Shown: positions 7,842-60,700 of the stretch, one piece after another
Numbering within the stretch: the first letter of the stretch is position 1
How the letters are laid out: every line of letters begins with the position of its first letter
From: an uncultured bacterium
GTDB taxonomy: Bacteria > Patescibacteriota > JACMRA01
Assembly: GCA_963784355.1 (NCBI GenBank)
Contig: CAWAQU010000009.1
Location: forward strand, 64,001 to 128,000
Reading direction: 5' to 3'
Length of the DNA: 64,000 bases
Notes under the pieces: model-generated
What the model was told of the DNA's origin: nothing
The model's input: the letters and a program-made list of their open reading frames with translations, nothing else
The model's database searches: none
Program-made: the position numbers and the translations under genes

Positions 7842-9317
7842 CTAGTCTTTTGGCCCTAAATTATACCTAGACAGTGCTTCTGATCTAGCTTTTTGATGAT
7901 CAATAATTAGTTTAGGAGAGTAATCAACAGGTAGCCATTTATTTCTGTAAATCGCACCCTGATCAAATTTATCTGCTTGTAAATAGGGATTAAATATCCT
8001 AATTGGCTTGGGATCAGCCCCTACTGAAGCAGCCCACTGCCAACCACCATTATTTGAAGCCTCATCGTGATCAAGCAAGGTATACCTAAAGTATTCTTGT
8101 CCCCAACGCCAATCCACACCAAAATTTTTGCAAAGCACGCTACCCACAACCATACGCATTCTATTATGCATCCAACCTGTTTTGAGCAATTGATTCATTC
8201 CCGCATCTACTAAATCGTATCCTGTTTGACCGTTTACCCAAGCAACAAATCTCTCAATAGCAATACTCTTTTCAGCCCAGCGTATTTTATTTTGATGCTT
8301 TTCCTGCAATTCCAAATCTAATACAAAAGGGAAGTGGTATAATATGTACCTATAAAACTCACGCCAAAGTAATTCCGAAATATATGACTCTATGTTTTCG
8401 TTTTCCAAAATACTCGTTTGATATTTGTTTTTCAATTTACGAACAATGGTCGTAGGTGAAATCAAACCCCATTTTAAAGCCAGACTTAGGTGACTTGTAG
8501 ATTGTTCTTCAGTATCTAACGCTAAACTATTTCTAGATTCTTTATATTCTAGTATATCGTGACTTACAAAATGGTCTAGTTTATCCAAGGCTTGCTCTTC
8601 AGTATAATACCAGCTATCAAGCAAAATCGGTATTTGTAAGTTTGATAAATCAATAGAAAAATCGCCTAAATGTAAATTGGTATCTTTTTTTGCTACTATG
8701 TTTTCAATTTGACTTCTTAGTTCGTTTTCTGAAACACGTGTTTCGATCATTTTCAGATGATTCTTGCCCTCAGATATATTTTGGATAAATTCAACCTGAT
8801 TTAGATCTGCCTCTAAATAATATTTAGCATTTATAAAATCATTGAGCACAACTTTTTTAAAGGGTGTAAATACCGTGTATACGTTACCTGTAGACGAAAC
8901 AACTTGTTTGTCTATTCTCAATTGGTCTGGGAAACAAAATGCTTTTGCAACACCACTAAGGTTAAATAAATCTACAACACTTCTATCTCTTTTAAGTGCA
9001 TATGGCTCAATATCCTCATTGAAATAAAGTTGAACATCGTAAATATCAAGCAATTCTTTAAATATATCCACAGGTTTTCCACAGAATATCCAAAAATTAG
9101 GAAATTGTTTAGCAAAATTAGCCAGAGCCTTAGCTAAGTAAAGCCTTCGATTAAAGCCAACGTTAGTTCTTGGGTCTACAAGCCCATCATCAATGATAAA
9201 AACCGGAGCAAATTTTACATTATTCTCTCTAGCATATTTCAATGCTTCAAATAAAGCTGGATTATCTAACAATCTAAAATCTCTTCTTGACCAAAAAACT
9301 ACTAGCTTCTGTTTCAC
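7842..9317 (-). CDS. phrB: Deoxyribodipyrimidine photolyase / cryptochrome family
   Basis: RRDFRLLDN, TSHLS, ELLWREF, GWMHNRMRM, ASNNGGWQW, RIFNP. Confidence 0.93.
   Translation of the reverse strand: MKQKLVVFWSRRDFRLLDNPALFEALKYARENNVKFAPVFIIDDGLVDPRTNVGFNRRLYLAKALANFAKQFPNFWIFCGKPVDIFKELLDIYDVQLYFNEDIEPYALKRDRSVVDLFNLSGVAKAFCFPDQLRIDKQVVSSTGNVYTVFTPFKKVVLNDFINAKYYLEADLNQVEFIQNISEGKNHLKMIETRVSENELRSQIENIVAKKDTNLHLGDFSIDLSNLQIPILLDSWYYTEEQALDKLDHFVSHDILEYKESRNSLALDTEEQSTSHLSLALKWGLISPTTIVRKLKNKYQTSILENENIESYISELLWREFYRYILYHFPFVLDLELQEKHQNKIRWAEKSIAIERFVAWVNGQTGYDLVDAGMNQLLKTGWMHNRMRMVVGSVLCKNFGVDWRWGQEYFRYTLLDHDEASNNGGWQWAASVGADPKPIRIFNPYLQADKFDQGAIYRNKWLPVDYSPKLIIDHQKARSEALSRYNLGPKD
8732..8743. 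repeat. Palindrome AAACACGTGTTT, copy 1 (inside photolyase)
   Basis: tg-AAACACGTGTTT-cg. Confidence 0.85.
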
Positions 9318-9342
9318 TTGCTAAATGATTTTACTTAAAAAA

Positions 9343-9972
9343 TTAATACTTCTTGCTGTACATCACATCCTCCCCTGTTCTAGAGTAGTCTAAACTTGCG
9401 TCATCGCCAAACCACAAATTGATTTCGTTATTTGCTTCTTCAAGTGTCTCGCTAGCATGAAATAAATTATGAATAGCTCTACCTTCCACATTAGCAACTG
9501 CTGGGCTATCAACAGAAAAATCACCTCTAATGGTACCCATTTCAGCTTTAAAAGGAAGTGTATGACCTGCTAATTTTCTCACCATATCAATAGCTTGAAT
9601 TCCTTCAATTACCAAACATACTACGGGGCCACTGGTCAAATAGTCTATTAGTGAATCTACTACTTTAGTACCTATTTTATTTTTGTCACTTGTTCCCAAA
9701 AACTCTTCTGCATTTAAATTTAAATCTGAAAAAGTGCTAAGACCCTTATCTCCCAATCTATCAACCCAACCTTGATTTTCCATAGGCAAGTGCTTCATTA
9801 CGATCTCTCTAGTTGGAACAACCATTTTTAATGAAACAATTTTTAAACCAGATTTTTCAATTCTAGAAATAATTTCTCCTACCAAACCTCTAGCCACGCC
9901 ATCTGGTTTGACCATGGCGTAAGTTCTTTGCTTCTTAATACCTTTTATTGTTGGGTGCATTGTGTTAGACAT
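9343..9972 (-). CDS. ndk: Nucleoside diphosphate kinase
   Basis: MVKPDGVARG, SGPVV, GTIRGDF, NLFHAS. Confidence 0.95.
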   Translation of the reverse strand: MSNTMHPTIKGIKKQRTYAMVKPDGVARGLVGEIISRIEKSGLKIVSLKMVVPTREIVMKHLPMENQGWVDRLGDKGLSTFSDLNLNAEEFLGTSDKNKIGTKVVDSLIDYLTSGPVVCLVIEGIQAIDMVRKLAGHTLPFKAEMGTIRGDFSVDSPAVANVEGRAIHNLFHASETLEEANNEINLWFGDDASLDYSRTGEDVMYSKKY

Positions 9973-10013
9973 ATAATACTAAATCAAGTGTATTTGTATG
10001 TTTTGTCAACTTA

Positions 10014-10025
10014 AAACACATGTTT
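10014..10025. repeat. Palindrome variant AAACACATGTTT (1 mismatch), intergenic
   Basis: ta-AAACACATGTTT-ca upstream of ndk. Confidence 0.7.
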
Positions 10026-10182
10026 CAACTTTAAAACCAAGCTTTTATACTAATACAAAAATAACAGGTTGCTTTTGACTCAAGCAAACTTTTTTTGTTT
10101 GAAATATTGAGCATCTTAGCCATCTTAGTTAGCACACTACATAGGTAGAGTTGGTCTTTGGAATATTCCAACTTAAAATAAG

Positions 10183-10896
10183 TTAGTTAAATTTTTTAGC
10201 ACAGGACCAATGTCCTTTTCCGCCATTAGCGAACATCCATGAAGTAATTTCGATTTGTTGATATGGATTCCAAATATCGGGGCTATCTGTTTTTAGTTTG
10301 CTTGCATAGCCGTAAAAAGTCCTATCACCGAACTGAAATAATCCTTTGTACAAACCGTTACTACTAAGTGCATTGGCTCTACCTCCGCTTTCGCAATACA
10401 TGGTACTAATGAGTTCCTCGGCAACACATCCGTTTTTTTGACAAGCTAAACGTATAGCTGATTCAAAATCCATTCCTGTATACGGCGTTTTTACTACAAC
10501 AGGTTCTTCAACTTTAATAACTGGCTTAATTTGGGCTTGAGCGGCTTTTACTGCAGCTTCCTGTTTAACTAATTCAAGTCTAGCTTTTTCTTCTGCTTCT
10601 TTCTGAGCTAAAATTTTAGCCTGAGCTTCTATTTCCGCTGCAATTTCAATTTGGCGTTGTTTTTCCTGAGCATCTTTTTCTTCTTGAATCTTTTTAGCTT
10701 GTTGTACTTCAAGTTCATTAATCAGTGGTTTAGAAACTGTATGATAGTAATGAAAGCTGTCTGTTTGAACAAGCGCTTTGGAATAACTTATCTGATTTAC
10801 CACTTCTTCTTTCTTTTGATCAACAAGTGATGAATTAACTGGTATGGTGATAAGGTTTAGAAGTGCTATCCCAATAATGAAATTTAAAGTCTTCAT
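10183..10896 (-). CDS. Secreted lytic transglycosylase / Rpf-like protein with coiled-coil stalk
   Basis: Signal peptide, KEAQ-rich coil, CESGG...GLFQF...HWSC; ATG 10896 downstream of TTTACA-16-TATAAT. Confidence 0.8.
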   Translation of the reverse strand: MKTLNFIIGIALLNLITIPVNSSLVDQKKEEVVNQISYSKALVQTDSFHYYHTVSKPLINELEVQQAKKIQEEKDAQEKQRQIEIAAEIEAQAKILAQKEAEEKARLELVKQEAAVKAAQAQIKPVIKVEEPVVVKTPYTGMDFESAIRLACQKNGCVAEELISTMYCESGGRANALSSNGLYKGLFQFGDRTFYGYASKLKTDSPDIWNPYQQIEITSWMFANGGKGHWSCAKKFN

Positions 10897-10944
10897 ATTT
10901 TCTTCAGGCGGCAAACCTGAATTACTTATTGCCTTTAGGGTCAA

Positions 10945-11325
10945 TTATACATAGATATAGTTTTTTGTAAAGTTTTGACAAATTAACCGATTTATTTTTA
11001 TCCACTAGGCTAGTTTTTATCTGATAAAAAATATTTATTAAATAATTTGAATAAGGTTGTGTTTAATCTGTGTATATCTTGAGTATATTATCTTGAGTAA
11101 TATTTTAATAATTACTGTTATTTTACAGTTGTACATTTTTTCCACAGGTAGACCAAAGTTATCCACAATCTTAACATTTCTTATTACTCAGCTTTATAGC
11201 AATGATTCAAGCTTATCCACAACTTTTATCGACATATATTATTATATTACAAATATTTATTTAAATAAGAATGTATTGACAATAATTACTAAAAATAAAA
11301 GATTGTACTACATAACAATTTAACT
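10945..11325. other. Putative chromosomal replication origin (oriC)
   Basis: DnaA boxes TTTTCCACA 11138, TTATCCACA 11159 and 11213, TTATCGACA 11226, TTATCCACT 10998; AT-rich TATTATTAT tract follows the last box. Confidence 0.7.
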
Positions 11326-12471
11326 ATGGCTAAAAAAGCAAATCAAAATAACGTTCAAATACCTACAGGTATAGAAGATAAGAAAAAGATGGCGGACTTG
11401 ATTATTTCCCAGATTAAAACCACATTTGGACAAGGTTCTATCATGAAGATGAATGAAATAGCAAATCCAGATGTAGAAGTTATTTCCACAGGATCTCTTT
11501 CTGTTGACTTAGCTTCTGGAATAGGGGGTTTACCTAAGGGAAGGGTTGTAGAAATCTATGGACCCGAAGCAAGTGGTAAGACAAGTTTGGCTTTATCTGC
11601 TATTGCTCAATCTCAAAAAGAAGGTGGAATTGCTGCCTTTATTGATGCTGAGCATGCTTTAGATCCTGCAAGAGCAGCAGCCTTTGGGGTTAATTTAAAT
11701 GATCTATACCTATCTCAACCTAATAACGGAGAAGAGGCTTTGGAGATTGTGGATAACTTGGTCAGATCGAATGCTTTTGATATTATAGTTGTAGACTCTG
11801 TTGCTGCATTGGTACCAAAAAGTGAAATTGAGGGCAGCATGGGTGATTCATCAATGGGCGTGCAAGCAAGGCTTATGAGTCAAGCGCTTAGAAAATTGAC
11901 CGGTATAATCTCCAAATCAAACACAGTAGTTATATTTATCAATCAGATACGTTTGAAAATTGGAGTCATGTTTGGAAATCCAGAAACTACCACTGGAGGA
12001 CAAGCACTAAAATTTTATGCATCTCAACGATTTGATGTGAGAAAGGTGGGAAATTTAACATCTAACAACGAAACTGTAGGTGTAAGAGTGAGAGTAAAAG
12101 TTGTGAAAAACAAGATGGCAGCTCCATTTAAGACTGTAGAGTTTGATATGATGAACAGTGAACCAGGTGTAATCTCTTTAGCAGGAGAGGTCGTAGATAT
12201 CGGAACTACTTACGAGGTAGTAGTCAAAACAGGAAATACCTACACTTTAAAATCTGAAAAGCAAGGCGAAGTAAAATTGGGAGTTGGGCGCGAGAATGCT
12301 AAAAAGTATTTATATGAGCGTAAAGAATTGCTTGAAGAGGCTAAAATTTTGATTTTAAAAGAATTTAAGAGGAGAATAAAGGAAGGGGTGATCAACCTTA
12401 CTGAGGTAAATGAGCCAAATGATGAAGATTTTACTAAAGTAAACAGTGATTCAGAAGATTCAGAAGAATAG
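11326..12471 (+). CDS. recA: Recombinase RecA
   Basis: [37 protein letters not shown]. Confidence 0.98.
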
Positions 12472-12553
12472 TAGCCTAATCAGTTGACAAATTCATTTAA
12501 ATATCTTTGATTAAAGAGTAGAAGATACATCTGTATAGTTGTATATCTACTTA

Positions 12554-12640
12554 CCGGAGTTGGCCGAGCGGTCAATGGCAGCAGACTGTAAATCTGTCGG
12601 GATTATCCCTACCCAAGTTCAAATCTTGGACTCCGGACCA
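12554..12640 (+). tRNA. tRNA-Tyr (GTA), C1:G72, long variable arm
   Basis: Acceptor CCGGAGT/ACTCCGG-A-CCA; GCAGA ct GTA aa TCTGT; variable arm GGGATTATCCC. Confidence 0.95.
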
Positions 12641-12644
12641 TCAA

Positions 12645-12719
12645 GCGGGATTTGTATAGTGGTTATTACCTCAGGTTTCCAACCTGATGAGAAGGGTTCG
12701 ATTCCCTTATCCCGCTCCA
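12645..12719 (+). tRNA. tRNA-Gly (TCC)
   Basis: Acceptor GCGGGAT/ATCCCGC-T-CCA; TCAGG tt TCC aa CCTGA. Confidence 0.95.
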
Positions 12720-12957
12720 ACAAAAAACTAAAAATCAAACAAAATTTAAAATAAAGTTAAGAATAAATATAGAAAACATAAACTTCTCCAAAATGAGCTT
12801 GTATCAGAAACTAAGGCAAGCTTTGGAAACAAACACTTACAGTTTTTAACCCGTTGCAAGCAACTAGGTATTCTAAGTATTAATAAAAACTTTTTTCTGA
12901 TAAAATCAAAGCTAACCTAGTTTTAGCAAGATTAGACGGCAATAATCAATAAAAATT

Positions 12958-13635
12958 ATGAGCAACCAAAAAGTCAGTAATTCCGATTTAGAGAAATTGA
13001 AAAAAAACACGAAAATTAATAGCGGGGATGAAGAAGATTTGGATAAGAACCAAAATATTGATCTAGAGCCTCAAGAAACAAAAGAAAATGAAGTACCAGA
13101 GGTCAATAATAGTAAAAATGAAGACCCTTACACTGATGTAGAAGTAAAATTACTTCAGGACCATATTGCTTCGCTGGAGAGTGAGTTAAGAGTAGCAAAA
13201 TTAGAGACTGATGATTGGAAAATTAGAACTTCCAGGCTAGCTGCCGATCTTCAAAACATGAGCAAGCAATTAGAATTGGATATAATTCAGGCTAAAAAAT
13301 CCAGTAAGAAAAATTCTATCCTTACAACCTTAGATTTTCTAAATACTTTAAATTTAGCTTTTCTGTATCTTCCACAAACTGAAGATGAGAGCATATTGAA
13401 GTTCTTTAACACTTTAAAATTCAGCTTTACTAAACTGATTGAAGATCTTAAAAGTGTTGGAATTGAAATAATTATTCCGGCTACAGGGGAAGTTTTTAAT
13501 CCGGAGTATATGAGTATCCTAAATCCCGAGAAAGCGCAAGAATATGAAAATTCAGATATTTTAGTTGATAAAGTAGTAAGTTGTGGACTAAAAATCGATG
13601 ATCAAGTGGTTAGACCTTCTAATATCCTAATTTAA
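12958..13635 (+). CDS. grpE: Nucleotide exchange factor GrpE
   Basis: Acidic N-terminus, coiled coil RLAADLQN, GEVFNPE, VVSCGLKIDDQVVRPS. Confidence 0.85.
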   Translation: MSNQKVSNSDLEKLKKNTKINSGDEEDLDKNQNIDLEPQETKENEVPEVNNSKNEDPYTDVEVKLLQDHIASLESELRVAKLETDDWKIRTSRLAADLQNMSKQLELDIIQAKKSSKKNSILTTLDFLNTLNLAFLYLPQTEDESILKFFNTLKFSFTKLIEDLKSVGIEIIIPATGEVFNPEYMSILNPEKAQEYENSDILVDKVVSCGLKIDDQVVRPSNILI

Positions 13636-13639
13636 TTCG

Positions 13640-13651
13640 AAACACGTGTTT
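13640..13651. repeat. Palindrome AAACACGTGTTT, copy 2 (intergenic)
   Basis: cg-AAACACGTGTTT-ga just after the grpE stop. Confidence 0.85.
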
Positions 13652-13827
13652 GAGATTATAACCATTTGAATTAACACAGATGATCCAATTTTTATTAAAA
13701 CTTTCAGGCACCTAAATAGCCTTTAATCTTGGTAAGAAATTATAAATTAGATACAATTCGATCTTTTGCAGTCAGTATCAAAGAGTATAGAATCCTAAAA
13801 ATATTAAAATAATATATAGTTACTCAG

Positions 13828-14850
13828 TTACTCTTGTAACATCCGTTGGTAGCTTTGATATCGATAAATATTAATTTCTCCTAGTTCAACTGCATTTTTA
13901 ACTCCACAACCAGGCTCATGATCATGCAAACAATTCTTGTACTTGCAATATTTTGAAAAATTTTCAAACTCAGGAAAAAAGAAGCGAATATCAGCTTTTA
14001 CAATATCTTCAATACCAAGTGAGCGGATTCCTGGTGTATCAATTATATAAGAATCATTGTCCCACCTATAAAGACTGGTTGCTGTAGTTGTATGTCGGCC
14101 TTTTCCTGTCCTCTGACTTACTTCACTAACTTCTAGGTTTACAGCCGGAATAATTGAGTTTGCAAGAGAAGATTTGCCCACTCCACTATTACCTACTAGT
14201 GCCGATATTGAACCTCGGAGTAAATTCTTAAGTGTATCAATCCCCATGTCGTTAACTACAGATGTTTCTATGACCGGAATTCCACTTGCCTTATAAAAAT
14301 CAATTATAGGGTGTCTCTCTGTAGTGAGCTCCGATTTGCTGATACAAATAACCGGCTTTACATTACCGTTTTGAAGTATCATCAGATACCGATCAATAAA
14401 TCGTGGATGGAACTCCGGATTCTTTGAGCTTGCTACAATCACGGCTATATCTAAATTTGCCACAAGAACATGTTGCTGAAGCGCAACTGGTGCATACCGA
14501 GTGCTATCACCTCTCATACGAGCAATAATAGTTTGTCGATCCTCTTTTTTTACTATATAACCTTGGTCCTGAGTTGTTTTTATAAAATGAACTCGATCAC
14601 CGACCACTAACTGCCCTATTGTTTGTAAATATATAAAATCACTTAAGGAACATTTAGTATAGTTGTCATTATTCATGACTATGAAATTTTTATTTCGAAT
14701 TGCAGCAACAGTTCCGATCAAAGTTGCTTCAGGTGGAAAGCTAGATTCTACTTTTAAATGTTCCCTAGAACCTTGTGGCTTAGTATATTTTTTCTTGGTG
14801 CGTGCTCTAGGATTCCCGTATCTATCCCAAAAATCAGTCTTATTGCTCAT
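13828..14850 (-). CDS. rsgA: Ribosome small subunit-dependent GTPase A
   Basis: VVGDRV, GNSGVGKSSL, GRHTTT, IDTPGIR, CKYKNCLHDHEPGC. Confidence 0.95.
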   Translation of the reverse strand: MSNKTDFWDRYGNPRARTKKKYTKPQGSREHLKVESSFPPEATLIGTVAAIRNKNFIVMNNDNYTKCSLSDFIYLQTIGQLVVGDRVHFIKTTQDQGYIVKKEDRQTIIARMRGDSTRYAPVALQQHVLVANLDIAVIVASSKNPEFHPRFIDRYLMILQNGNVKPVICISKSELTTERHPIIDFYKASGIPVIETSVVNDMGIDTLKNLLRGSISALVGNSGVGKSSLANSIIPAVNLEVSEVSQRTGKGRHTTTATSLYRWDNDSYIIDTPGIRSLGIEDIVKADIRFFFPEFENFSKYCKYKNCLHDHEPGCGVKNAVELGEINIYRYQSYQRMLQE

Positions 14851-14867
14851 AGGTTCCTACTATCTAA

Positions 14868-16157
14868 TTAAATTAACTTGTCTTCTTCTAAAAGTACTGC
14901 TTTCTCTTCTTTGCCAGATTCCAAGGTATCCATAGTGTTACTAACAGTTATTAGACTGCGATTGGCTAAATCATAATTTTGCTGTGCCTGTCTAATTTTA
15001 TCTCCGAGCTTTCTAAATTCATCCTGGAAAACCTTCACATTTTCTTTAATTTTGCTCAAACCTGCAATAATTTGCTCCGCATTTTGGTTGATATTGTATT
15101 TAAACTGGTAAGTTCTAATAATTAATACTAGAGGAAAAATCGTAATTGGTGAAACAGGTGCTACTTTCAGTTTTTGTAAAGCAGTTACAGTAGCTTCATC
15201 ATTGGCTACTTCAGAATACATTGAATCACTGGGAAGGTACATAAGTAAATGTTCCAAATAGCTATCTTTTTGGTATTTCTTTGAGATATCTTCAGCCATT
15301 TCTAATATACTTCGTAAAAAAGCTTTTAAGGCGGCCTTTTTATTATCTTTATCTGCTTCTAGGTAATCATTGTACTTAGTTGCAGGCAGCTTACAGTCTA
15401 TTCCAATTTTTTTGCCGTCAATTTTTATAACAAAATCAATTTTATCATTTGTTCCTGGAATCACTACTTGTTTTTCCCATGAATTAGGATTTAGATTCTC
15501 TGCTAAAATACTTTCCAAATACTTTTCACCAAAATCACCAATTGCTTTACTGTTAGTACGGCTAAAAATAGAATTTAATTTATCAATAGATGTAGTTGAG
15601 TCAATCATAGTTTGGGCAGCAACTTTCATCTCACCCAAATTTCTTGTAACATCCTCAAAAGACTTTAAATGCTGTAAAAAGTTATCATTAAGCCTTTTTT
15701 GCACATCCTGATTAATTTGTTCTAGTTTATCTTGATTTGTTTTACTTAAAAGTTCAAAGTTTTTGTTTGTCATTTCTTGAAGCTTCCCAAGTTCTGTTCT
15801 ATTCATCTCCGAAATTCCTAAAAGAGCTTGTTGCAACCTTTCCTGTACAGAATTTTGAATATTTGAGAGGCCAGTATTTAAACTTTCTTGGGTGGCTGTT
15901 TGTAATAGACTAAATCTTTGTTCCAACTTGATCTGATTATCTTTGATTTCATTTATTTGCTTGGTACTACCCTCTTGTATAGCCTCAAGTAAGCGGCTGA
16001 GACTACTCATTTGAAAATCACCCATCTTCATGATAATAGAGTTGACTATATTAGTTTGATCAGGTTCAAATTGTTTACCAGGACCTTTTACAATCAGCCA
16101 AGCAAGGATCAAAAGTCCGACTAAATTTACTAAGGATATGAATAACAATAAGTCCAT
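14868..16157 (-). CDS. rmuC: DNA recombination protein RmuC
   Basis: N-terminal TM, coiled coil, GDFGEKYLE, IDCK, ISKKY, MYLPSDSMY. Confidence 0.85.
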   Translation of the reverse strand: MDLLLFISLVNLVGLLILAWLIVKGPGKQFEPDQTNIVNSIIMKMGDFQMSSLSRLLEAIQEGSTKQINEIKDNQIKLEQRFSLLQTATQESLNTGLSNIQNSVQERLQQALLGISEMNRTELGKLQEMTNKNFELLSKTNQDKLEQINQDVQKRLNDNFLQHLKSFEDVTRNLGEMKVAAQTMIDSTTSIDKLNSIFSRTNSKAIGDFGEKYLESILAENLNPNSWEKQVVIPGTNDKIDFVIKIDGKKIGIDCKLPATKYNDYLEADKDNKKAALKAFLRSILEMAEDISKKYQKDSYLEHLLMYLPSDSMYSEVANDEATVTALQKLKVAPVSPITIFPLVLIIRTYQFKYNINQNAEQIIAGLSKIKENVKVFQDEFRKLGDKIRQAQQNYDLANRSLITVSNTMDTLESGKEEKAVLLEEDKLI

Positions 16158-16545: not shown

Positions 16546-16603
16546 CTTGACAAAAAGAGTATATAGCAACATTATTCAACAACTTATCATAAGCAAATAA
16601 ACT

Positions 16604-17137: not shown

Positions 17138-17232
17138 CAAAAAACTATCTTTTGGATTATATCTAGAGATTAGTTGTAGTCCTATATTTATTATACATAC
17201 ATAAGCGCTAAATACTATCATCATTAATTTAT

Positions 17233-17613: not shown

Positions 17614-17633
17614 TTTCAACTAAATTTTAGGTC

Positions 17634-18398: not shown

Positions 18399-18400
18399 TT

Positions 18401-34084: not shown

Positions 34085-34096
34085 AAACACGTGTTT
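34085..34096. repeat. Palindrome AAACACGTGTTT, copy 3 (intergenic)
   Basis: at-AAACACGTGTTT-ta between divergent rpiB and trmD. Confidence 0.85.
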
Positions 34097-34118: not shown

Positions 34119-34974
34119 GTGCTATTTAATATTTTCACTCTTCATCCTAATATATTTCACTCTTTTTATTGCTGAAAGCTTAATTGCCAGAGGAATCTCC
34201 AAACACGTGTTTCAGATAAATTTTTGTAATTGGAGAGAAAATTTTGGCATAGGAAATTATAAACAAGTTGATGACAAACCCTACGGCGGCGGTACTGGAA
34301 TGGTACTTAAGCCAGAGCCAATTTTTGAGGCTCTAAAATCATACAATGCTATAAGCGATCTCTATCAAGCACCAAATGAACCGCAAGTACACCATAAAAT
34401 ATTACCTAATAATCTTAAGTTTTATAATCAAGTGCAAGCTACCGGAAAATTTGATAAGGTGACAATTATGATGACTCCCCGAGGCTATAAACTTAATCAA
34501 CAAACTGCCCAGTGGCTTACAAAATTTGATAAAATAAATATTTTATGTGGCAGGTACGAGGGTTTTGATAGTCGTATATCTGACACAGTTGACTTAGAAA
34601 TTTCTATAGGTGATTTTGTTTTAAATGGTGGTGAGGTAGGAGCTATGGCTACAATCGAAACTGTAGCAAGACTTTTACCAGGGTTTATAACTAAAGAAAA
34701 TTCGGTACTACATGATTCTTTCTCTGAGGAACTAAATTATTATAAAGAACACGAAAATTTTTTCTTGAAAACTAAAAATAACCAAAAAATAGAAAATACC
34801 AACACTCTTTTTGACGAACAACAATGGATAGAAAAAACCTTGCCCTTAATTGAGCATCCACAGTATACTAGACCGCTAATTTGGGGAAATTATGAGGTAC
34901 CTCAAGTGTTGTTGTCAGGCAGCCATAAGCAAGTGCAATCTTGGCGTCAAGCTGAGTGGAGATTTGACAAGTAA
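34119..34974 (+). CDS. trmD: tRNA (m1G37) methyltransferase with a +1 frameshift near codon 16
   Basis: VDDKPYGGGTGM, CGRYEG, SIGDFVLNGGE, HPQYTRP; conserved N-terminus (GTG 34119, LFNIFTLHPNIF) is in a different frame. Confidence 0.9.
34201..34212. repeat. Palindrome AAACACGTGTTT, copy 4 (inside trmD)
   Basis: cc-AAACACGTGTTT-ca. Confidence 0.85.
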
Positions 34975-39522: not shown

Positions 39523-42615
<3,093 letters not shown>

Positions 42616-42921: not shown

Positions 42922-42933
42922 AAACACGTGTTT
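42922..42933. repeat. Palindrome AAACACGTGTTT, copy 5 (intergenic)
   Basis: cc-AAACACGTGTTT-ca. Confidence 0.85.
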
Positions 42934-50065: not shown

Positions 50066-50074
50066 ACTCACGCT

Positions 50075-51547: not shown

Positions 51548-51578
51548 AATATTGTTTGTTGTCGATTTTTGTTTTGTT

Positions 51579-53150
51579 TTAGAAGAGGAAGCTTATTAAT
51601 TCTGAGGCCTTCTTACTAAAGTTGAAGTTTGGCTTGAGGCTACTTAAGGATAGGCTTGGAAGCTTGTTGACTGCAGCTTCGATAAATGGAACAAAGAAGG
51701 ATATATTTAACACGGCCCAGGAAATATTGGTGATTACTGAAGCATTTAAACCTTCTCTTTGAGCAGCTGCAAAAAAGCCACCTATAGCAAGAGCTATATA
51801 ACAAAGATGTGGCCATGCTAGATAATAAAAACTACCATCTATTTTTGTTTTGGAAGTTACGGCAAATTTAGCCTTTTTACCTCCTAATACTCCCCAAAGA
51901 GCAGTTACAAATATACTAAATGAACTCACTGAAAAAGCCAAAGCTCTAAAAGTGTAATTTAAATTATTTGATAACCTTAAAGCATACATATTGAAGAATA
52001 TATAAGGTAGGAATATCAGAGCTAAAGCCAGGGTTGAGGTATTTAAAGGTGCTCTTCCTGTGTATAAATAAGCCAAAGGCAATAAAGCATCAATTGCTAC
52101 CACGATTCCTGACAAATAAAAACTCGCTGAGGCTAGATATTGAATTTTTTGAGCAAAAGTTAGATGTTTGCTAAACAAAGGATTATATTTAAAAACTATT
52201 TCCAGACTGCCTCTAGCCCATCTTAGTTGCTGTTTGTAATAAGATAAGAAATCTTCAGGAGCCAACCCTTTTGCAAGAATTTTTGGTACATATATAGATT
52301 TCCATCCTCTTTTATGAATGAATAAAGATGTAATAAAGTCTTCTGCAATGTTGGTTTCACACATACCACCTACTTCTTCCAAAGCAGATCGTTTGATGAT
52401 CACGTTAGTTCCGCACATGAAAGTGGAGTTTAGACGGTTTTTACCTCTGCAGATAGGTTCAAAAAACAATTCTTGTTGCTCCCAGGCACTTTTTGTTAAT
52501 TCATTTGTTAGGTAATTTTCATAAAATTGAGGAGTTTGCACAAAAGCAACCTTTTCATCAGAAAAATGACCGACAGTTTCTTTTAAAAAATCTCTATGTG
52601 GTTGATGATCTGCATCAAAAATTACAACAAACGGATTTTTAGTTTGTCTTAACGCGTTGTTGACGTTGCCTGCTTTTGCTCCACCGGGTTGAGTACGAGT
52701 AATGCAGTTTATTCCTTCCTGCATAGCCATATCCTCAATTTGCTCCCAGTTATCTTTTTTGGCTACAAAACCGTCATTTAGAATATGTACTTTAAAATGG
52801 GGATAATCTATATTTTTTGCTGCAATGACTGTTTCTCTGACAAGTTCTACCGGTTCTCCGGCTACTGTAATAAAAATATCCACCCAAGGTTTAAGACTTG
52901 AATCAAATTTAGGTTTGTAATCCATTTCCCAAATAGTATAAATATAGGTGATTGTTTGCCAAACATGGAAAATTTCGCCAAATACCAGCAATCCGAATAA
53001 AATAGGGTCTCCTGGCGGCAGTAAAAATACTATAAATATAAAGTATAATAAAGTTAAGAATATATTTAGAACTAGTAACCATTTTGGTACTGAAATTCCT
53101 TTTTGATTGTCTTTTCCGAATTTATTTTCAATGAATCTTTCTGTTGTCAT
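51579..53150 (-). CDS. Cellulose synthase-like processive GT2 (BcsA-like, no PilZ)
   Basis: LNDG, AKAGN, DADH, QTPQ, FMCGT, AED, QQLRW. Confidence 0.92.
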   Translation of the reverse strand: MTTERFIENKFGKDNQKGISVPKWLLVLNIFLTLLYFIFIVFLLPPGDPILFGLLVFGEIFHVWQTITYIYTIWEMDYKPKFDSSLKPWVDIFITVAGEPVELVRETVIAAKNIDYPHFKVHILNDGFVAKKDNWEQIEDMAMQEGINCITRTQPGGAKAGNVNNALRQTKNPFVVIFDADHQPHRDFLKETVGHFSDEKVAFVQTPQFYENYLTNELTKSAWEQQELFFEPICRGKNRLNSTFMCGTNVIIKRSALEEVGGMCETNIAEDFITSLFIHKRGWKSIYVPKILAKGLAPEDFLSYYKQQLRWARGSLEIVFKYNPLFSKHLTFAQKIQYLASASFYLSGIVVAIDALLPLAYLYTGRAPLNTSTLALALIFLPYIFFNMYALRLSNNLNYTFRALAFSVSSFSIFVTALWGVLGGKKAKFAVTSKTKIDGSFYYLAWPHLCYIALAIGGFFAAAQREGLNASVITNISWAVLNISFFVPFIEAAVNKLPSLSLSSLKPNFNFSKKASELISFLF

Positions 53151-54394
53151 ATTAATTTTGTTAAAATCTTTAATTTTGTGTTATTTTCTATATTTTCGGC
53201 CAAATTTACAGTTAGACCATTATATAAAGCAGTTCCAAACCAAGCCCAATTAGAGTTGTAGTAACCCAGATCAGTTTCCCAGTTAGAAATGTCTCTGTTG
53301 TAAGCTTTTTCCAATTTTTGTTTGTATATTTGTTCAGCTAAGCCTTTATCCTTTGCCATAAAATAAGCTATACTACTTCCATACATTGCGAGACTTTCCT
53401 CTTTCTCTACTACAATTCCGTCATGAGTATAATTTCTGTAAATAGCCTGATTATTTGTCCACTCTTGATCCAAAAAATTTAGTTTACTTAGATATTGCAG
53501 AGCCTTTTCTTCTTTAAACCACATCCAATCTAAGTATATTCTCCAAGGTACTCGAAGTGCATCGTAGCTGAAATTTGTGTTTAAATCAGTATTCTCTGCT
53601 GCTTTCCAACTTTGATCAGACTTATTAAGTATAACCCAGTTTGGAGGAAGATTACTACTTTTGCCTTTATCCAAATTTAAAACAGTGACTTCATCTAAAG
53701 TGCTATATGTATCAGTCGCAAGTTGTGACCAGGCATTTTCAGGATTTAATTTAGCAAATACTTTGTAAGCATAGGGACTGAAATAAGAAGGGTTTACAAT
53801 CACTTCATTTTTTACTGCCTCTTTTTCCAAGCTGTTGCTAAGTAGTACATACCTATTTCCAATTTTTGCCACCTCCACAGCCCAAACACTACTAATAATT
53901 TTTTTAGCCTCGGCTAGGTACTCTGGATTGCTCCAGCGATTAGCCGCCATGACCAGGGCTAGTGCAATATCTGTATCACCATCAGTTGCAGTGTTTTTAC
54001 CACCTCTTTCTTCCAAAATAGCCCATTCTCCGTTTGATTTTTTGCCGTATAACCAAGAAAATAAATTATCTTCTTTTCTCTGCAAATTTTCTTTTGTCCA
54101 CTTCCAGCTTTTGTCAAAAGTATCTTTATCATCTATCCAAACCGCACTTAGCATAGTGTAGGATTGTCCTTCAGAAGTTGTAATATCAGCCTGTTGTCTA
54201 TCTAGTGTCCTTCCGGTAGATTCTATATAATTTTTTTTGTAATAGTACCAGGTGTTTTCCAAAACTTCTGCATTAGAAAAAACCACTTTAGGTTCATTTA
54301 AAAAAACATTTTTTACAAACTGCAAATTGACCCCGATTAGGATAATAATGCTTAACAGAGCTGTAATTAAAGTGACTTTATGAGCTTTATTCAT
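53147..54394 (-). CDS. GH8 endoglucanase (BcsZ-like)
   Basis: TTSEGQSY, ATDGD, NPSY, YDALRVPW. Confidence 0.92.
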   Translation of the reverse strand: MNKAHKVTLITALLSIIILIGVNLQFVKNVFLNEPKVVFSNAEVLENTWYYYKKNYIESTGRTLDRQQADITTSEGQSYTMLSAVWIDDKDTFDKSWKWTKENLQRKEDNLFSWLYGKKSNGEWAILEERGGKNTATDGDTDIALALVMAANRWSNPEYLAEAKKIISSVWAVEVAKIGNRYVLLSNSLEKEAVKNEVIVNPSYFSPYAYKVFAKLNPENAWSQLATDTYSTLDEVTVLNLDKGKSSNLPPNWVILNKSDQSWKAAENTDLNTNFSYDALRVPWRIYLDWMWFKEEKALQYLSKLNFLDQEWTNNQAIYRNYTHDGIVVEKEESLAMYGSSIAYFMAKDKGLAEQIYKQKLEKAYNRDISNWETDLGYYNSNWAWFGTALYNGLTVNLAENIENNTKLKILTKLI

Positions 54395-54611
54395 ATATTT
54401 GTTTTTGATCTAAATTTTGTATTAATTTCGTTCTCATTATAAAGCCACACCTAAAAACCACGTTTTGTCAACAAATTTTTTATTCACGAGTCTGAGGGTC
54501 TTATAAATTTATAAAGGCTGCTACAAGTAACTAGGTATTCTGATTACTAACAACAAAAAAAGCCCCTAAGGGCCAAAATATTTTTTAATTTACTAATTAC
54601 TGTTAAAACTA

Positions 54612-55103
54612 CTACTTTTTTCTTCCAATTCTTGCTGCAAGGTGAGCAAAAGCTTTGTTACCTGCTGCTGTCTGGTGCACTGAGTTTCTCTTTGCTACAG
54701 CAGGACCCTCTCCTTTATATGATTCAATCAGGATTTGCTTTAACTTTTGACTCATTGGTCTACCTTTGATATTTCGGGCAGAATTCACGATCCAAGTCAA
54801 GCCTAATCTAAGAGATCTAGCAGGATAAGGCTCCATAGGAACTTGATAACTTGCACCACCGACTCTCATACTTTTTACCTCTACCTGTGGTCTCACATTA
54901 TCAATTGCAGTTTCGATAACTTCTAAAGGAGCTACTTGTAATTCTACGCTAGCTTCAGTTATAGCATCTATTACGATTCTGTTTGCGACAGTTTTTTTGC
55001 CATCCCACATCAAACGATTGATTAATCTGGAAATCAAAGCACTACCGAAGGTTTTATCAGGTAAAATAGTAGGTCGTTTTAGAACTCTTTTGCGTCTTGC
55101 CAT
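54612..55103 (-). CDS. rpsG: 30S ribosomal protein S7 (orphan)
   Basis: LMWDGKK, RVGGASYQVP, NKAFAH. Confidence 0.96.
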   Translation of the reverse strand: MARRKRVLKRPTILPDKTFGSALISRLINRLMWDGKKTVANRIVIDAITEASVELQVAPLEVIETAIDNVRPQVEVKSMRVGGASYQVPMEPYPARSLRLGLTWIVNSARNIKGRPMSQKLKQILIESYKGEGPAVAKRNSVHQTAAGNKAFAHLAARIGRKK

Positions 55104-55249
55104 ATAATGAATGTATAATAGTATAAAATAATCTGATTATTTGCAGAATGTCAAGTTAAATTGTTTTAGAGTAGGCATAAAAATGAGTTTACAATTAAAG
55201 ATTAGCTACAAAACTTTTTAGAGTATGTATTTGAATCAGTGGAAAATAA

Positions 55250-56401
55250 CTAATTTACGGCGAAAGTCACTAGTTTATTTGGAATGACTTTGTGAAATTT
55301 AATATCTTTCCCTTCGAGCCACTTGCTCACTGCCTCTTTAGCTTTTTCAATGACTAAATTTTCCTCAGAATCTGTATCAATTTCAAATGTACCTCTCAAT
55401 TTACCGTTTACCTGGACTGCTATGGTGACCACCTCGTCTAAAACTAAAAGAGGATCGTAGATATGCCAACTAGTTAAATGGATTGATTTAGTATGATCGT
55501 TTTGATCAAAATTGTGATGCTTGTACCATAACTCTTCAGTGATATGAGGTGTAAAAGGGGCTAAAATTTGTAAGTATCCTGTCCAGATACTGCCCGGAAT
55601 TATTTCTTGATCCTTTAAAATATTGTTGAAAGTCATTATTTCAGCTACTGCAACATTATTTTTTTGCAGTTCAAGGTGCTCAGTAATCTTTTTCACTGTT
55701 TTATGGTAGCTTGATAGTAACTTTTTATCTATATTGGTTATTGTCTTATCTACCTTAGACTCTAACCTAAATAAACCATCAATTAGTTTTTTACAGGCTA
55801 TTAAACCACCTTCTTGCCAGGATACTGTAGCTTCGTATGGTCCAATAAAATTTACATACAATCTTAGAGCATCTGCTCCTACAGTATTTAATTTTTCATC
55901 AGGACTGATTACATTCCCTTTAGATTTGCTCATTTTACTACCGTCGCTAGCTAGCAATATTCCTCCATTAGTTCTTTTATTGTAAGGCTCGGAAGTAGGC
56001 ACGTGGCCTAATTTATGTAGAGCTTTGTGCCAAAAACGAGAATACAGAAGGTGAAGAGTTGTATGTTCACTGCCACCGAAATAGTGATCAACCGGTAGCC
56101 AATATTTCAAATTTTCTTGGGAAGCAAATTCCTGACTATTTTTTGGATCAGTATAACGCAGATAGTACCAGCTAGAACCTGCCCAGTTTGGCATAGTATC
56201 AGCTTCTCTTCTTCCTATAATTTCACCCTTTTCATCTCTTACATTTATCCAGTCCGATTTTATTAGTGGAGAGCGACCATCTTTAGAAGGCTCAAAATCT
56301 TGCACATCAGGCAATTCTAAAGGCAATTCCTCCTTACCTAGTAATCTAATTTCATATTCCTCTCCGTCAATAATGGTTTTTTTAGGTACTCCGTTGTCCA
56401 T
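55250..56401 (-). CDS. leuS: Leucyl-tRNA synthetase, C-terminal half (KMSKS + anticodon-binding)
   Basis: ELPLELP, DTMPNWAGSSWYYLRY, GGSEH..LHLLYSRFW, KMSKSKGN, QVNGKLRG. Confidence 0.93.
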   Translation of the reverse strand: MDNGVPKKTIIDGEEYEIRLLGKEELPLELPDVQDFEPSKDGRSPLIKSDWINVRDEKGEIIGRREADTMPNWAGSSWYYLRYTDPKNSQEFASQENLKYWLPVDHYFGGSEHTTLHLLYSRFWHKALHKLGHVPTSEPYNKRTNGGILLASDGSKMSKSKGNVISPDEKLNTVGADALRLYVNFIGPYEATVSWQEGGLIACKKLIDGLFRLESKVDKTITNIDKKLLSSYHKTVKKITEHLELQKNNVAVAEIMTFNNILKDQEIIPGSIWTGYLQILAPFTPHITEELWYKHHNFDQNDHTKSIHLTSWHIYDPLLVLDEVVTIAVQVNGKLRGTFEIDTDSEENLVIEKAKEAVSKWLEGKDIKFHKVIPNKLVTFAVN

Positions 56402-56449
56402 AATAATGGTATAAATCAAGTATTTATTTTTAATTCAGTCAAATCGTGG

Positions 56450-57028
56450 TTAAAGTTTAGATTTTCCAGTTAAGTGTTCCAGTAACTTAGGAAACTCTTC
56501 TTGATTAAAATGTCCTTTGGCATCAAAAAAATTAGTTTTGGCTAGAGGTAAGCTACTTTTGTATTTTACCGCATCCTGGAAATCCACCACAAAATCGTCT
56601 TTGGAATGCCAAATAAAAATCTCATTGCAATTTTGTGAGAGTATGTTAAAGTTTTTAACTTGTTTAAATTTGCCGCAGGTTTCATATGGTGCAGCAATTA
56701 AATGTAATTCAGAAATTTTGAGCTTAACTTCGCTCAGATATTTAGCTAAAAATATTCCTCCCAGACTATGTCCAATTAAAATATCACTTGGTTTAAGGCT
56801 AGAAGCAATTTTATCAAAAACTATTTTCCACTCCCGATACTGAGCATTTTGCTTGTTTGGCATATTAGGTAATAGTACCTCGAAATTTTTTTCTTGAAGT
56901 TTGGGGACTGCTGATAATTTCCAGTCTGAACGCTTAGTAAATTTGGGTTCGATAGAATTTAAGTAGGCGAGGTAGTCCTTATAGGAATTAAAGCTGTCAC
57001 CACCGTGGATTATAACAATTTTGGTCAT
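56450..57028 (-). CDS. RBBP9/YdeN-family alpha/beta hydrolase
   Basis: IIHG, GHSLGG, HSKDD, GHF. Confidence 0.9.
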   Translation of the reverse strand: MTKIVIIHGGDSFNSYKDYLAYLNSIEPKFTKRSDWKLSAVPKLQEKNFEVLLPNMPNKQNAQYREWKIVFDKIASSLKPSDILIGHSLGGIFLAKYLSEVKLKISELHLIAAPYETCGKFKQVKNFNILSQNCNEIFIWHSKDDFVVDFQDAVKYKSSLPLAKTNFFDAKGHFNQEEFPKLLEHLTGKSKL

Positions 57029-57313
57029 AAATAGATTGTAAATTGGTTTATGGAATTAGGATTAATTGATGCTAACAGGTAAGAAATTAAAAATCAAGAC
57101 TGAATTCAAAAAAGCAAAAATCTGTTGAGTCGAATCATTTAATTTAACTTTAGCCCTATTTTATATAGCGATTTAGTTAGATTGAGCAGCTATAAAGCTA
57201 AAATATTGTACTTAAGTAAAGTAACTATATATCATAATCTCTTAAAATATATCTTGACATATCTCGAAAATTATGGTAAGAGTTTAATAATACCCAAATT
57301 TAATACAATTTTT

Positions 57314-57682
57314 ATGTCTTTCGAAAAACATCTAAATCAGCCCACAAAAAAAACTGCGGAAACAGCAAAAAGTATTGATTATGCAAATTACGTAACAGTT
57401 TTAGGCTCTGCTTTATTAACTCTAGGACTAACCGCACAACCAAGCATTGCTCCCGGCTTTGCACCTGAGCTACCAGCGAATTTAGTTAGTCAGGGTAAAA
57501 AACAACAACCTGCTCCAAAAACAGAGCGACCTAAAGACCAATCTCCTCATAGGGGTTTTGGAAGGAGAGAGCTATATCCAAAACAAGATTTAGAATCAAC
57601 TTTGACAGCTGTCAATCCGTCTACAGGAGAAAAGAATGTTATCGAGCTTAATGCTCCTAAGCAATTTCCTACTGCTGCATAA
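57314..57682 (+). CDS. Secreted Pro-rich protein with PatX-like PHRGFGRRE motif
   Basis: ATG 57314; hydrophobic segment ending AQPSIA; upstream TTGACA at 57254; terminator downstream. Confidence 0.7.
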   Translation: MSFEKHLNQPTKKTAETAKSIDYANYVTVLGSALLTLGLTAQPSIAPGFAPELPANLVSQGKKQQPAPKTERPKDQSPHRGFGRRELYPKQDLESTLTAVNPSTGEKNVIELNAPKQFPTAA

Positions 57683-57711
57683 ATCAATTTTTGTTAATAG
57701 CGCTAAAATTA

Positions 57712-57739
57712 TCTGCTCTAACCGGGGCAGGTTTTTTTT
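57712..57739. terminator. Terminator between the convergent PatX-like gene and the leuS N-half
   Basis: CTGCTCT AACC GGGGCAG G + T8. Confidence 0.7.
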
Positions 57740-57749
57740 ATGAGATCTA

Positions 57750-60700
57750 TTACAAACTCTTCTTTATATATTCTACCGGAAATGGTTCTCCCCAATATCT
57801 TTGTCTTGAAAATACCCAGTCTCTAAATTTATAATTGATTTGCTTATTGCCTCTACCTAAATTAATTAATTTTTGAGCAATTTTTCCTCTGGCCTCTTCT
57901 GATCTCAACCCGTTAAATTCAGCAGAATTGTATAAAATTCCGTCACCAGTCACTGGTTTGTAGCTAAACGTTTGAATATTGTTTGTGGTATCTAAATTTA
58001 GAGTAATTGCTTGATTTATAGCTCTGCGAAAAATTTCAAATTGATGAGGATTGTTTTCCTGATTTAACTTTTGTAAAATTATTTCAGCAGTTTCCCAACC
58101 AAAATTAAAGGCTTCATGGCTTTCGAGTTGAGTTTCACCTTCGGAGTTAGAGTCTGCAATTACCAAAAATGGATAAGTAAGAGCAAACCTATTAATTTTT
58201 TTCAGGCTATTGTAATAATGTGCATAAACAGGGCCGCCAAGCGGAATAACTTCAGAAATCTCTTGCAAACCAGTCTCTTCAATGACTTCTCTTTCTGCTG
58301 CTTTATTTATTTCCTCACCTTCTTTAATTCCTCCTCCGACCATGATAAATTTATCATCTTCATGTTTCTGCAAATAGCCGTATTTTTGTGTGCTAGGGTC
58401 AAAAACGACTGCACAAATTCCCTCCACAAAAGTTTCATTTTCGGCAGCTTTACCAAATTCAGGTGCGATGACTTCTTTTAAAGGAACATCATACTTTTTA
58501 GCCATTTCATTATCTCTTTCATCGTGAGCATTAGCCATAACCGCACCAGTGCCATATCCGGGTAATACAAAATCGGAGATCCATACAGGTAATTTTGCAC
58601 CGGTCAAAGGATGATAGACGTAACCACCGGTAAAAGCACCTGTTTTTTCTTTATCAATTTGCCTGTCCAGCTCACTTTTATTTTTAGTCTTTTCGATGTA
58701 GTCTTCTACAATCTGTTTCTGAGCTCTTGTAGTGATTTTTGATACTAAAGGATGTTCTGGAGCCAGTACCAAAAAAGTTGTGGAGTATATAGTGTCCACT
58801 CTGGTTGTGAAAGTCTGAATAGTATTTGCCTCAGCATCTTCTATTTTGCCTAAAGCCCACAAAGCCTGCTCTGTTGCATGCTCTTTTATATATTCCGGGC
58901 CAGCTAAAAAGCACTCAATATCTTTTTCAATACCAGGTTTTCTCTGATTCCAATTTTCCAGTGAGCATTCAAAATAGTAAAAATGGTCTAGTTTGTGAAT
59001 AATTCCTGTTTTATTAGGATTCCAATTGTAAAAACCATGTGAAGTACCCAAATATTTTTTAAATTCCAATCCAGTCAATCCGACCTCTTCTTCAGTTTCG
59101 CGGATAGCGGCAGCCAAGCCATCCTCTCCCGGATCAATGTGGCCACCCGGAAACCGTACTCTTAAATCACCCCGTACTTTTTTATCGTAAATTACAAACT
59201 GGCCTGTTTCCTTTATTTTAATAACTGCAATTCCACGCTCACCTTGAGAAATGTTGAAATCAATGTCACCAATTTTTTCAGCAAAACTAGGGTATAAATT
59301 TTGAGTCATTTTACTCATGACCTTTGTTGTGTTTTCATTCCACAGTAGTTCCTTGGCTTCAGCAAAACTTACCCATTTATACTCATCGTGTTCCCAATTT
59401 AGGGTAGGCTGCTTGTCTGTAAAAGCGTAAAAATTGAAAGCTCTGATTACATTTCCTTTTGGTGAGGTAAAACCCCAGGAATAAGTATAATTTAGATTAG
59501 TTACACTAATTCCTGTCTCTTCAAAAACTTCTCTTTGCGTACCTGAAATTATATCTTCACCTTTATCAATCGAACCCCCTGCCAAATCCCATAATCCAGC
59601 CCCGTCATCTTCTTGAGAGCGTTTCATAATCAGTACTTGTTGATCTGAGTTAATCAAAAAACAAGAACCGTAGACTTTATTTAATTTATCCAGATCTTTT
59701 ATTTTCTCGGAAAATTCGGTCGCTAACAGAGCCTTTGAACATTTTTGAAACACGTGTTTGACTACGTCTTTGTGGTCCTCCCAATTTAACAATTCAAGAG
59801 TTTCTGCATAATTTACCCATTTATACTCACTATGTTCACTACTTACTTTGACCTCATCATTTGCTTGAGTAAAAAAATAGACATTGCCAATTTCTTTATT
59901 TGAACTGTGATGTAGAAAGCTGTGGGAATACAAAAGCTCAATATTTTCTACCTCTAGGCCTGTTTCCTCTAAAACTTCCCTTTTAGCCTCAGCAAAAATA
60001 TCCTGAAAATCATCAATTCCACCACCCGGTAACTCCCAGACATTTGGTGAACTATCACTACTACTACGCTTCAATACTAAAACCTGATTTTGCTTATTTA
60101 GTACCACCGTAGTTGTCTTGGCTTTTTCAAATTCCGTGGCATCAATTATATGCTCCGGTGCAATTTTCCAATCTACAACCACTCCTTCACTTTTACCGAT
60201 CCAATTGCGTTGCATGTCTTTAATGTGTTCCGGAAAGTTGGTTTCATCCAGCCCCGCAAGTAATTCTTCAGCGTATTCAGGCATTTTCAAAATCCACTGC
60301 ATCATTTTCTTTTTTTCTACAGGATGTTCGCCACGCTCACTCACTTTTTGCCCATTAATTTCGATAATTTCTTCATTAGATAGTACAGTTCCCAATTTTT
60401 CACACCACCAAAGCTCAACTTCTTTTTGTTCAGCTAGCCCCGCTTTATAAAGCTCTGTGAAAATCCATTGAGTCCATTTGTAATATTCAGGATCGGTTGT
60501 AGCAAACTCTCTATTCCAGTCAAAACCAAAGCCGAATCCGTTAAATATATCACGAAAATTATCAATATTTTGTTTGTTTACTATTTTGGGATTAATCCCT
60601 GTTTTTCTGGCGTATTCTTCAGTAGGCAAACCAAAAGCATCCCAACCCATAGGAAAAAGTACATTGTATCCCCTCATTCTCAAAAATCTGCTGTAAACAT

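Follow-up and report, generated by a model that had tools for sequence, protein, structure and literature searches.

A parS-like palindrome with inverted arms, clustered near the putative replication origin in a class of Patescibacteriota: a candidate centromere site for a ParB of altered specificity

The window analysed here is a stretch of 64,000 nucleotides (positions 64,001-128,000 of contig C9) from the genome of an uncultured bacterium of the Patescibacteriota, hereafter G000 (1,138,885 bp in 13 contigs, 33% G+C, estimated to be 81% complete); C denotes a contig number, and the other genomes of the class and its outgroups are labelled G001 and so on. The window carries repeated copies of the palindrome AAACACGTGTTT, which shares its centre with the canonical, near-universal bacterial centromere site parS. 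The palindrome is strongly over-represented, its copies cluster close to the putative origin and are restricted to one lineage, canonical parS is absent from the same genomes, and the occurrence of the palindrome covaries with the recognition helix of the chromosomal ParB. It is probably a lineage-specific, non-canonical parS that would be bound by a chromosomal ParB of switched specificity. On balance, the whole class may well have rewired its centromere: its only ParB lacks Arg173 and has a helix with Gln174, Tyr175, Lys177 and Tyr179, parS would have become the arm-inverted AAAACACGTGTTTT, and Lys177 would mark the sub-lineages in which exactly this site is used. The interpretation as a switched ParB/parS pair is supported computationally; that ParB is the binder, together with everything downstream of binding, we infer.

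A motif scan of the window found six exact copies of AAACACGTGTTT and one copy at one mismatch, AAACACATGTTT. These are the copies listed in the preliminary description of this DNA (8732, 13640, 34085, 34201, 42922 and 59748, with the mismatched copy at 10014), which had also correctly placed them both in genes and in intergenic DNA: two are within genes (photolyase and leuS) and the rest are intergenic. The sites and the putative origin are as follows.

8732..8743, no strand: exact AAACACGTGTTT, within the gene for photolyase (7842-9317, minus), at a distance of 2.3 kb from the DnaA-box cluster
10014..10025, no strand: one-mismatch site AAACACATGTTT, intergenic, between the NDK gene and a transglycosylase gene
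10945..11325, plus strand: putative oriC (or a DnaA platform at the centromere), a 381-bp divergent intergenic region upstream of recA
13640..13651, no strand: exact AAACACGTGTTT, between the convergent genes grpE and rsgA, 5 nt past the stop codon of grpE
34085..34096, no strand: exact AAACACGTGTTT, first of a pair, 33 bp upstream of rpiB in the spacer between the divergent rpiB and trmD
34201..34212, no strand: exact AAACACGTGTTT, second of the pair, overlapping the predicted GTG start of trmD
42922..42933, no strand: exact AAACACGTGTTT, between the 23S rRNA gene (39523-42615) and the ABC-2 permease gene (42974)
59748..59759, no strand: exact AAACACGTGTTT, inside leuS (57750-60890, minus)

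Dinucleotide-preserving shuffles of the window gave a mean of 0.26 matches at one mismatch or fewer, and none of 100 shuffles reached seven. The whole G000 assembly holds eight exact copies, all of them on C9 between 39,777 and 123,759, an interval of 84 kb (p ~1e-7 for eight of eight in 84 kb of 1.139 Mb, by a scan-statistic approximation), and just two copies at one mismatch, at window position 10014 and at C12:195,486. The zero-order expectation is 0.134 exact copies per genome against the eight observed, and an earlier hand estimate of about 0.01 copies per 64 kb was therefore about right. Among all 12-mer palindromes of G000, AAACACGTGTTT has the highest ratio of observed to expected copies (60-fold) and is the only top-ranked one restricted to a single contig. 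All eight genomic occurrences of its 10-mer core lie inside AAACACGTGTTT copies, as do eight of the 28 CACGTG hexamers in the genome. The pair at 34085 and 34201 is spaced by 116 bp, and a comparable close pair, 170 bp apart, is found in G006; the CG-to-CA/TG change that distinguishes AAACACATGTTT is also present in G001 and G019.

The copies surround a candidate origin. Within the divergent intergenic region 10945..11325 there are five co-oriented DnaA boxes (at 10998, 11138, 11159, 11213 and 11226), two of them perfect, followed by a stretch of 90% A+T at 11251-11300. This cluster, 10,998-11,234, is the densest in the whole assembly, with five boxes in 600 bp where the background is 0.41 per kb. 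Two exact AAACACGTGTTT sites flank it at -2.3 and +2.4 kb and the one-mismatch copy at -1.0 kb, so that the three copies which had been proposed to lie within 3 kb of a putative oriC do so, and the whole G000 site cluster spans from about -35 to +49 kb around it. The single-contig genome G018 (1,272,640 bp) allows the position to be judged by replication strand asymmetry; its skew, open reading frame (ORF) strand and palindrome scans cover 842 kb of 1,273 kb (66%). All five of its copies lie at 243,883-291,079, and the cumulative GC-skew minimum forms a plateau at about 247-295 kb that coincides with this zone, with the skew maximum near 900 kb, which implies balanced replichores, and with the ORF strand bias, minus before about 245 kb, turning plus there. 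An unbiased palindrome scan of G018 returned the same motif as the top 12-mer (50-fold), and AAAACACGTGTTTT was the only 14-mer palindrome with at least three copies (456-fold). The sites thus lie at the skew minimum and divergent orientation switch in G018 and beside DnaA boxes in G000, not in the terminus as for matS/MatP, and the expected origin clustering, as opposed to a uniform spread, was found in both genomes. The same neighbourhood recurs in relatives: the NusA gene and the 23S rRNA gene adjoin the site cluster in both G000 and G018, recA lies 1-9 kb from a site in four of the five relatives checked (G001, G016, G008 and G014; in G018 it is 55 kb away), and a group of three to four DnaA boxes is found within 1 kb of a site in G016, G008 and G002. 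In the outgroup G033, three canonical parS sites adjoin a DnaA-box group, which indicates that both kinds of site share one genomic niche.

Comparison of 29 exact sites from 14 other genomes of the class shows that the base outside the 12-mer (position +/-7) is A in 53 of 58 half-sites, giving the class consensus A-AAACACGTGTTT-T, that is AAAACACGTGTTTT, often extended to tCA...TGa. The TG...CA flanks of the 16-mer put forward in the preliminary description are weakly present in G000 and are not the class consensus. Its suggestion that the in-gene copies might be conserved at synonymous positions did not hold, as the positions are not kept in relatives and it is the region that is kept instead. 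The congeneric G001 has a single exact copy and 11 sites at one mismatch or fewer, compared with two for the control, and nine of these 11 lie on two contigs syntenic with the G000 cluster; the variants are mostly AAACAYRTGTTT or changes of the outermost base. Coding constraint was considered for the in-gene sites and rejected, the photolyase-region sites of G000 and G018 being in different proteins and reading frames. The contexts of the sites vary, from the interior of genes to the space between convergent genes and promoter regions. Given that the sites persist in the region though their positions shift, they behave as would be expected of a position-independent loading site.

As a recurrent site the motif is confined to the lineage of G000, in which 27 species genomes make up both the taxonomic order and the class. 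Of these, 16 have one or more exact copies of AAACACGTGTTT and nine have at least two: ten in G016, nine in G014, eight in G000, five in G018, three in G008, and two each in G002, G005, G006 and G013. In a phylum sample of 301 genomes of completeness >=80, of which 285 are outside the class and 16 within it, a single copy was found in six of the 285 and two or more in none, while a reversed-pattern control matched 26 of the 285 (count taken from the table). Canonical parS shows the opposite distribution. The strict 14-mer core GTTNCACGTGAAAC was found in none of 26 class genomes in the scan of relatives (G041 left out) and in none of the 16 class genomes of the phylum sample, compared with 41 of the 285 genomes elsewhere in the phylum, where there are typically 2-12 copies within about 1 kb. 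In G000 the canonical 16-mer has no match at two mismatches or fewer, the best having three, so that the supposition that canonical parS would be missing was borne out.

G000 encodes one classical ParB (C7:30,687-31,541, 285 aa), which lies outside the window. It keeps the N-terminal CTP-binding boxes GERRLRA and ENLQRE and the helix-turn-helix (HTH) fold, matches PF02195 at 77 bits (PF17762 and PF02195 are also precomputed for the protein), passes TIGR00180 (138.3 against a cut-off of 58.45) and falls below the Noc equivalog cut-off (TIGR04285, 183.7 against 315 bits). Its HTH aligns without gaps to Helicobacter pylori Spo0J (4UMK, E = 1e-35, HMMER), with the classical K-S-R-A-H-V-A-N-I of that alignment corresponding to N-S-I-Q-Y-I-K-N-Y in G000. 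More generally, a classical recognition helix K-S-R-x-x-[IV]-A-N-[TS] is replaced in the class by x-S-x-Q-Y-[IV]-K-N-Y, conserved as Q-Y/H-[IV]-K/R-N-Y. The available text of Jalal et al. 2020 (PMC7383237) describes Arg173 as the residue that reads guanine 1 of parS, absolutely conserved and required for parS specificity, and N178, G201 and R204 as further residues that contact parS. An alignment of 36 ParB proteins, 25 from the class and 11 from outgroups, gave the following at these and neighbouring positions (Caulobacter numbering).

Position 173: Arg in 0/25 of the class (Ile in G000); Arg in 8/11 of the outgroup, including all three genomes with canonical parS
Position 174: Gln in 25/25 of the class
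Position 175: Tyr or His in 25/25 of the class
Position 178: Asn in 24/25 of the class
Position 179: Tyr in 23/25 of the class

The prediction that the specificity residues of this ParB would prove altered is therefore upheld without exception at the key residue 173. A G-Q-A-R segment of the G000 protein aligns to the G201...R204 segment (mapping by alignment), and of the 120 best database homologues 118 could be anchored, 114 of which have Gln174 with Tyr179. At residue 177 the protein covaries with the sites: two or more exact copies occur in nine of 15 genomes with Lys177 and in none of ten with Arg, Asn, Tyr, Cys or Asp (Fisher p = 0.003, ignoring phylogeny), and all nine class genomes with at least two exact copies carry Lys177. 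The three outgroup ParBs without Arg173 are L038 (G028), L033 (G036) and L029 (G034), with Val, Glu and Val respectively. Together with the lack of the strict canonical core in 244 of the 285 outgroup genomes, these three of 11 raise the possibility of further parS/ParB variants in the phylum. A second protein with a ParB_N domain (C10:39,682-40,920 of G000; L002 1495-2733; 412 aa) was rejected as a centromere protein, since it is a DNA-methyltransferase fusion in a phage-like context.

The changes in protein and site can be placed against each other. The parS half-site G1 T2 T3 T4 C5 A6 C7 corresponds to N/A1 A2 A3 A4 C5 A6 C7 in the new site, with positions 1-4 changed. Retention of the inner C5-A6-C7 would fit the retention of G201 and R204, and inversion of the outer arm would fit the loss of Arg173 and the gain of Gln174, Tyr175, Lys177 and Tyr179. 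In the mechanism proposed, ParB dimers would nucleate on the 5-10 palindromes around the replication origin, which are spread over about 50-85 kb, and would be loaded as CTP-dependent clamps to form a partition complex; a Soj/ParA-type ATPase would then use this complex to segregate the origins. ParA-type ATPases are present in G000, one of the Soj/ParA type at C7:53,120-53,905, 22 kb from parB.

Several observations weigh against a switched ParB/parS pair. First, the motif does not follow the helix throughout the class: 11 of the 27 genomes lack an exact copy, and neither the free-centre pattern AAACANNTGTTT (in G015, G021, G023, G024 and G017) nor the one-mismatch pattern (in G015, G021 and G012) exceeds the control despite similar helices, the same being true of both kinds of variant site in the motif-free genera g15, g17 and g12. 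The motif-free genomes probed (G015, G021, G023, G024, G017 and G012) are fragmented assemblies, 64-85% complete, and no common alternative palindrome was found on the short contigs that hold the recA neighbourhoods of genomes without Lys177. Six of the 15 Lys177 genomes have fewer than two exact copies, although two of these, G001 and G019, have clustered one-mismatch sites, and the Lys177 association is not corrected for phylogeny. The general link between helix change and site change could not be replicated in the outgroup G028 (ParB Val173), as its whole 785,860-bp contig has neither canonical parS at two mismatches or fewer nor an origin-clustered palindrome. Second, parB has no site in its vicinity (about 1.5 kb) at any of 25 class loci, and the G000 sites and parB are on separate contigs. 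Third, the sites themselves vary: 14 of the 16 G000 half-sites have C or G at position +/-7, unlike the class, and neither of the two sites alignable between G000 and G001 is kept in position; the flanks of the other seven G000 sites gave no blastn alignment to G001 across the motif. Finally, the DnaA-box cluster of G000 may be a centromere-associated DnaA platform and not oriC. No convincing DnaA-box cluster was seen in the 66% of G018 examined, where there are just imperfect boxes inside ORFs, and its dnaA, at C1:856,615, is near the skew-predicted terminus, some 600 kb away from both the motif zone and the skew minimum.

It is possible, though unlikely, that another organiser of the origin domain binds the palindromes, be it a lineage-specific nucleoid or anchoring protein like RacA with its ram sites or a replication-control factor, and that ParB uses some other site. 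Origin-proximal clustering does not by itself name the binder, and such a protein would accommodate the absence of a site adjoining parB, the class genomes that have a similar ParB helix without the motif, and the spread of sites over 50-85 kb, unlike the ~1-kb canonical parS arrays elsewhere in the phylum. However, no second clustered palindrome that could serve as ParB's own site was found in G000 or G018, and the motif retains the parS core CACGTG. Furthermore, its gain coincides phylogenetically with both the altered ParB helix and the disappearance of canonical parS, its presence in multiple copies follows ParB residue 177, and these genomes, of 1.1-1.3 Mb, have few DNA-binding proteins.

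A role of the motif as operator for some transcription factor, with a regulon near the origin by chance, is very improbable. Four of the six exact window sites are intergenic and three of those have a start codon no more than about 55 bp away (that of rpiB, trmD or the ABC-2 permease gene), as would suit an operator. Two window sites and four of five in G018 are inside genes, however, and the site at 13640 lies between convergent gene ends; moreover, the neighbouring genes are functionally unrelated and differ among relatives, and the sites shift while the region persists, with every copy in one chromosomal zone. The least probable reading, that of a restriction-modification or methylation target, a DNA-uptake sequence or a repeated mobile-element remnant, could draw on the under-representation of CACGTG in G000 (28 against about 100 expected, which could mean restriction avoidance) and on the TraG-like coupling-protein gene in the cluster region, but can hardly be sustained, since such motifs spread genome-wide whereas here eight of eight and five of five copies lie in less than 8% of the chromosome, the flanks are dissimilar beyond 14-18 bp, and the region has core genes (23S rRNA, recA, nusA, leuS and grpE) that are syntenic in relatives.

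The remaining features of the window and of the genomes compared can be given briefly. Core genes of the window are recA, grpE, rsgA, rmuC, rpiB, trmD, nusA, 23S rRNA, leuS and tgt. The leuS ORF (57750-60890, minus; 1046 aa) has strong NUDIX matches (PF00293, 210 bits) in four stretches, for example residues 261-379; these are situated between the catalytic core and the editing domain, an unusual insertion or fusion. The 23S rRNA gene (39523-42615) is 3093 nt long compared with a model of 2925 positions and within the window there is no 16S gene next to it, which suggests a gene with insertions and an unlinked rRNA operon. The gene at 5114-7801 (minus), 3.1 kb from the putative oriC, encodes a protein of 895 aa whose C-terminal region is of the TraG/TrwB coupling-protein type; its 78% identity to the protein of the congeneric G001 marks it as a conserved chromosomal gene and not a recent mobile element. 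The closest named database relatives of the ParB are a 'Patescibacteria group bacterium' and a 'candidate division SR1 bacterium'. Genetic code 25 was tried because database relatives carry the SR1 label and was rejected for the window: in-frame TGAs occur just at the extreme ends of extended ORFs, so that TGA acts as a stop codon and table 11 applies. The dnaA gene was not found in the 81% complete G000 assembly, and in G016 and G014 it is on a contig other than that of the recA/DnaA-box region. The SMC hinge (PF06470) was not found in 27 class genomes including G018 with a query that also missed the Caulobacter and Bacteroides controls, and the PF02463 matches in G000 were rejected as SMC, being ABC transporters. 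On C1 of G028, a complete 786-kb genome, a perfect palindrome of ~28 bp centred on AATACATCGATGTATT occurs in 11 dispersed places (for example 84,102, 238,029 and 697,029), its 16-mer more than 10,000-fold above expectation.

If the palindrome is indeed read by ParB, the consequences extend beyond this class. The available text of the review PMC7022226 and of Jalal et al. 2020 regards both chromosomal parS and its reading residues in ParB as essentially fixed throughout the bacteria. Natural switches of specificity would then be known not just for the Noc paralogue and for secondary replicons but, for the first time, for the ParB/parS pair of a primary chromosome, possibly in a lineage that lacks recognisable SMC and has its dnaA displaced a long way from the origin. 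Such a switch would also offer an independent evolutionary replicate for the co-evolution of DNA-binding specificity and genomic sites without loss of an important function. In practice, parS-based prediction of origins and centromeres would fail silently in part of the Candidate Phyla Radiation, and an orthogonal ParB/parS pair would become available for DNA-labelling tools. The motif is in addition a sequence marker of the origin region in uncultured, fragmented genomes. A literature search (supplements not covered) returned no paper with the motif string and none joining parS and ParB with Patescibacteria.

Among known systems, the ram sites of RacA in Bacillus subtilis are inverted repeats of ~14 bp that occur in multiple copies, are enriched in the origin region and are sporulation-specific; they differ from the present motif in both protein family and sequence. 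The closest likeness is to canonical parS, TGTTNCACGTGAAACA, with ParB/Spo0J. Both are palindromes of 12-16 bp with the same CACGTG centre, present in 5-10 origin-proximal copies that are indifferent to gene context, in genomes with one chromosomal ParB bearing GERRxRA and an HTH and with a ParA-type ATPase. Unlike TGTTNCACGTGAAACA, the new site has inverted A/T arms (AAA...TTT here, TTT...AAA in canonical parS), and its outer G1/C is replaced by A/T (C/G in G000). The ParB of the class likewise differs from its canonical counterpart in lacking Arg173 and in its altered recognition helix, no site adjoins parB, and the sites are spread over 50-85 kb, unlike the ~1-kb canonical parS arrays of the phylum. 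Noc sites are spread over the chromosome except the terminus. Noc with NBS, tATTTCCCGGGAAATa, is the known natural specificity switch within the ParB family in the account available of Jalal et al. 2020 (PMC7383237), and it resembles the pair proposed here in being a ParB-family protein that has lost Arg173, has acquired residues of a basic or permissive kind within or close to the recognition helix and reads a palindrome derived from parS. Unlike Noc, however, which is a paralogue beside ParB/parS, here it is the sole classical ParB that would have switched, canonical parS is gone and the sites are origin-clustered; furthermore, the bases changed here are positions 1-4, whereas in NBS they are positions 1 and 6. 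Secondary-replicon pairs, such as that of Burkholderia cenocepacia chrII with gTTTATGCGCATAAAc, share divergent palindromic sites and divergent ParBs, and it is for secondary replicons that divergent sites are listed in the available text of PMC7022226, with chromosomal parS highly conserved and mainly TGTTNCACGTGAAACA. Such pairs serve secondary chromosomes or plasmids, and the main chromosome of those bacteria keeps canonical parS, whereas in this class it is the main and only chromosome that has the variant. In summary, the system resembles ParB/parS in its architecture, position and protein family, and it departs from ParB/parS in the sequence that defines the site and in the residue, Arg173, that defines its reading.

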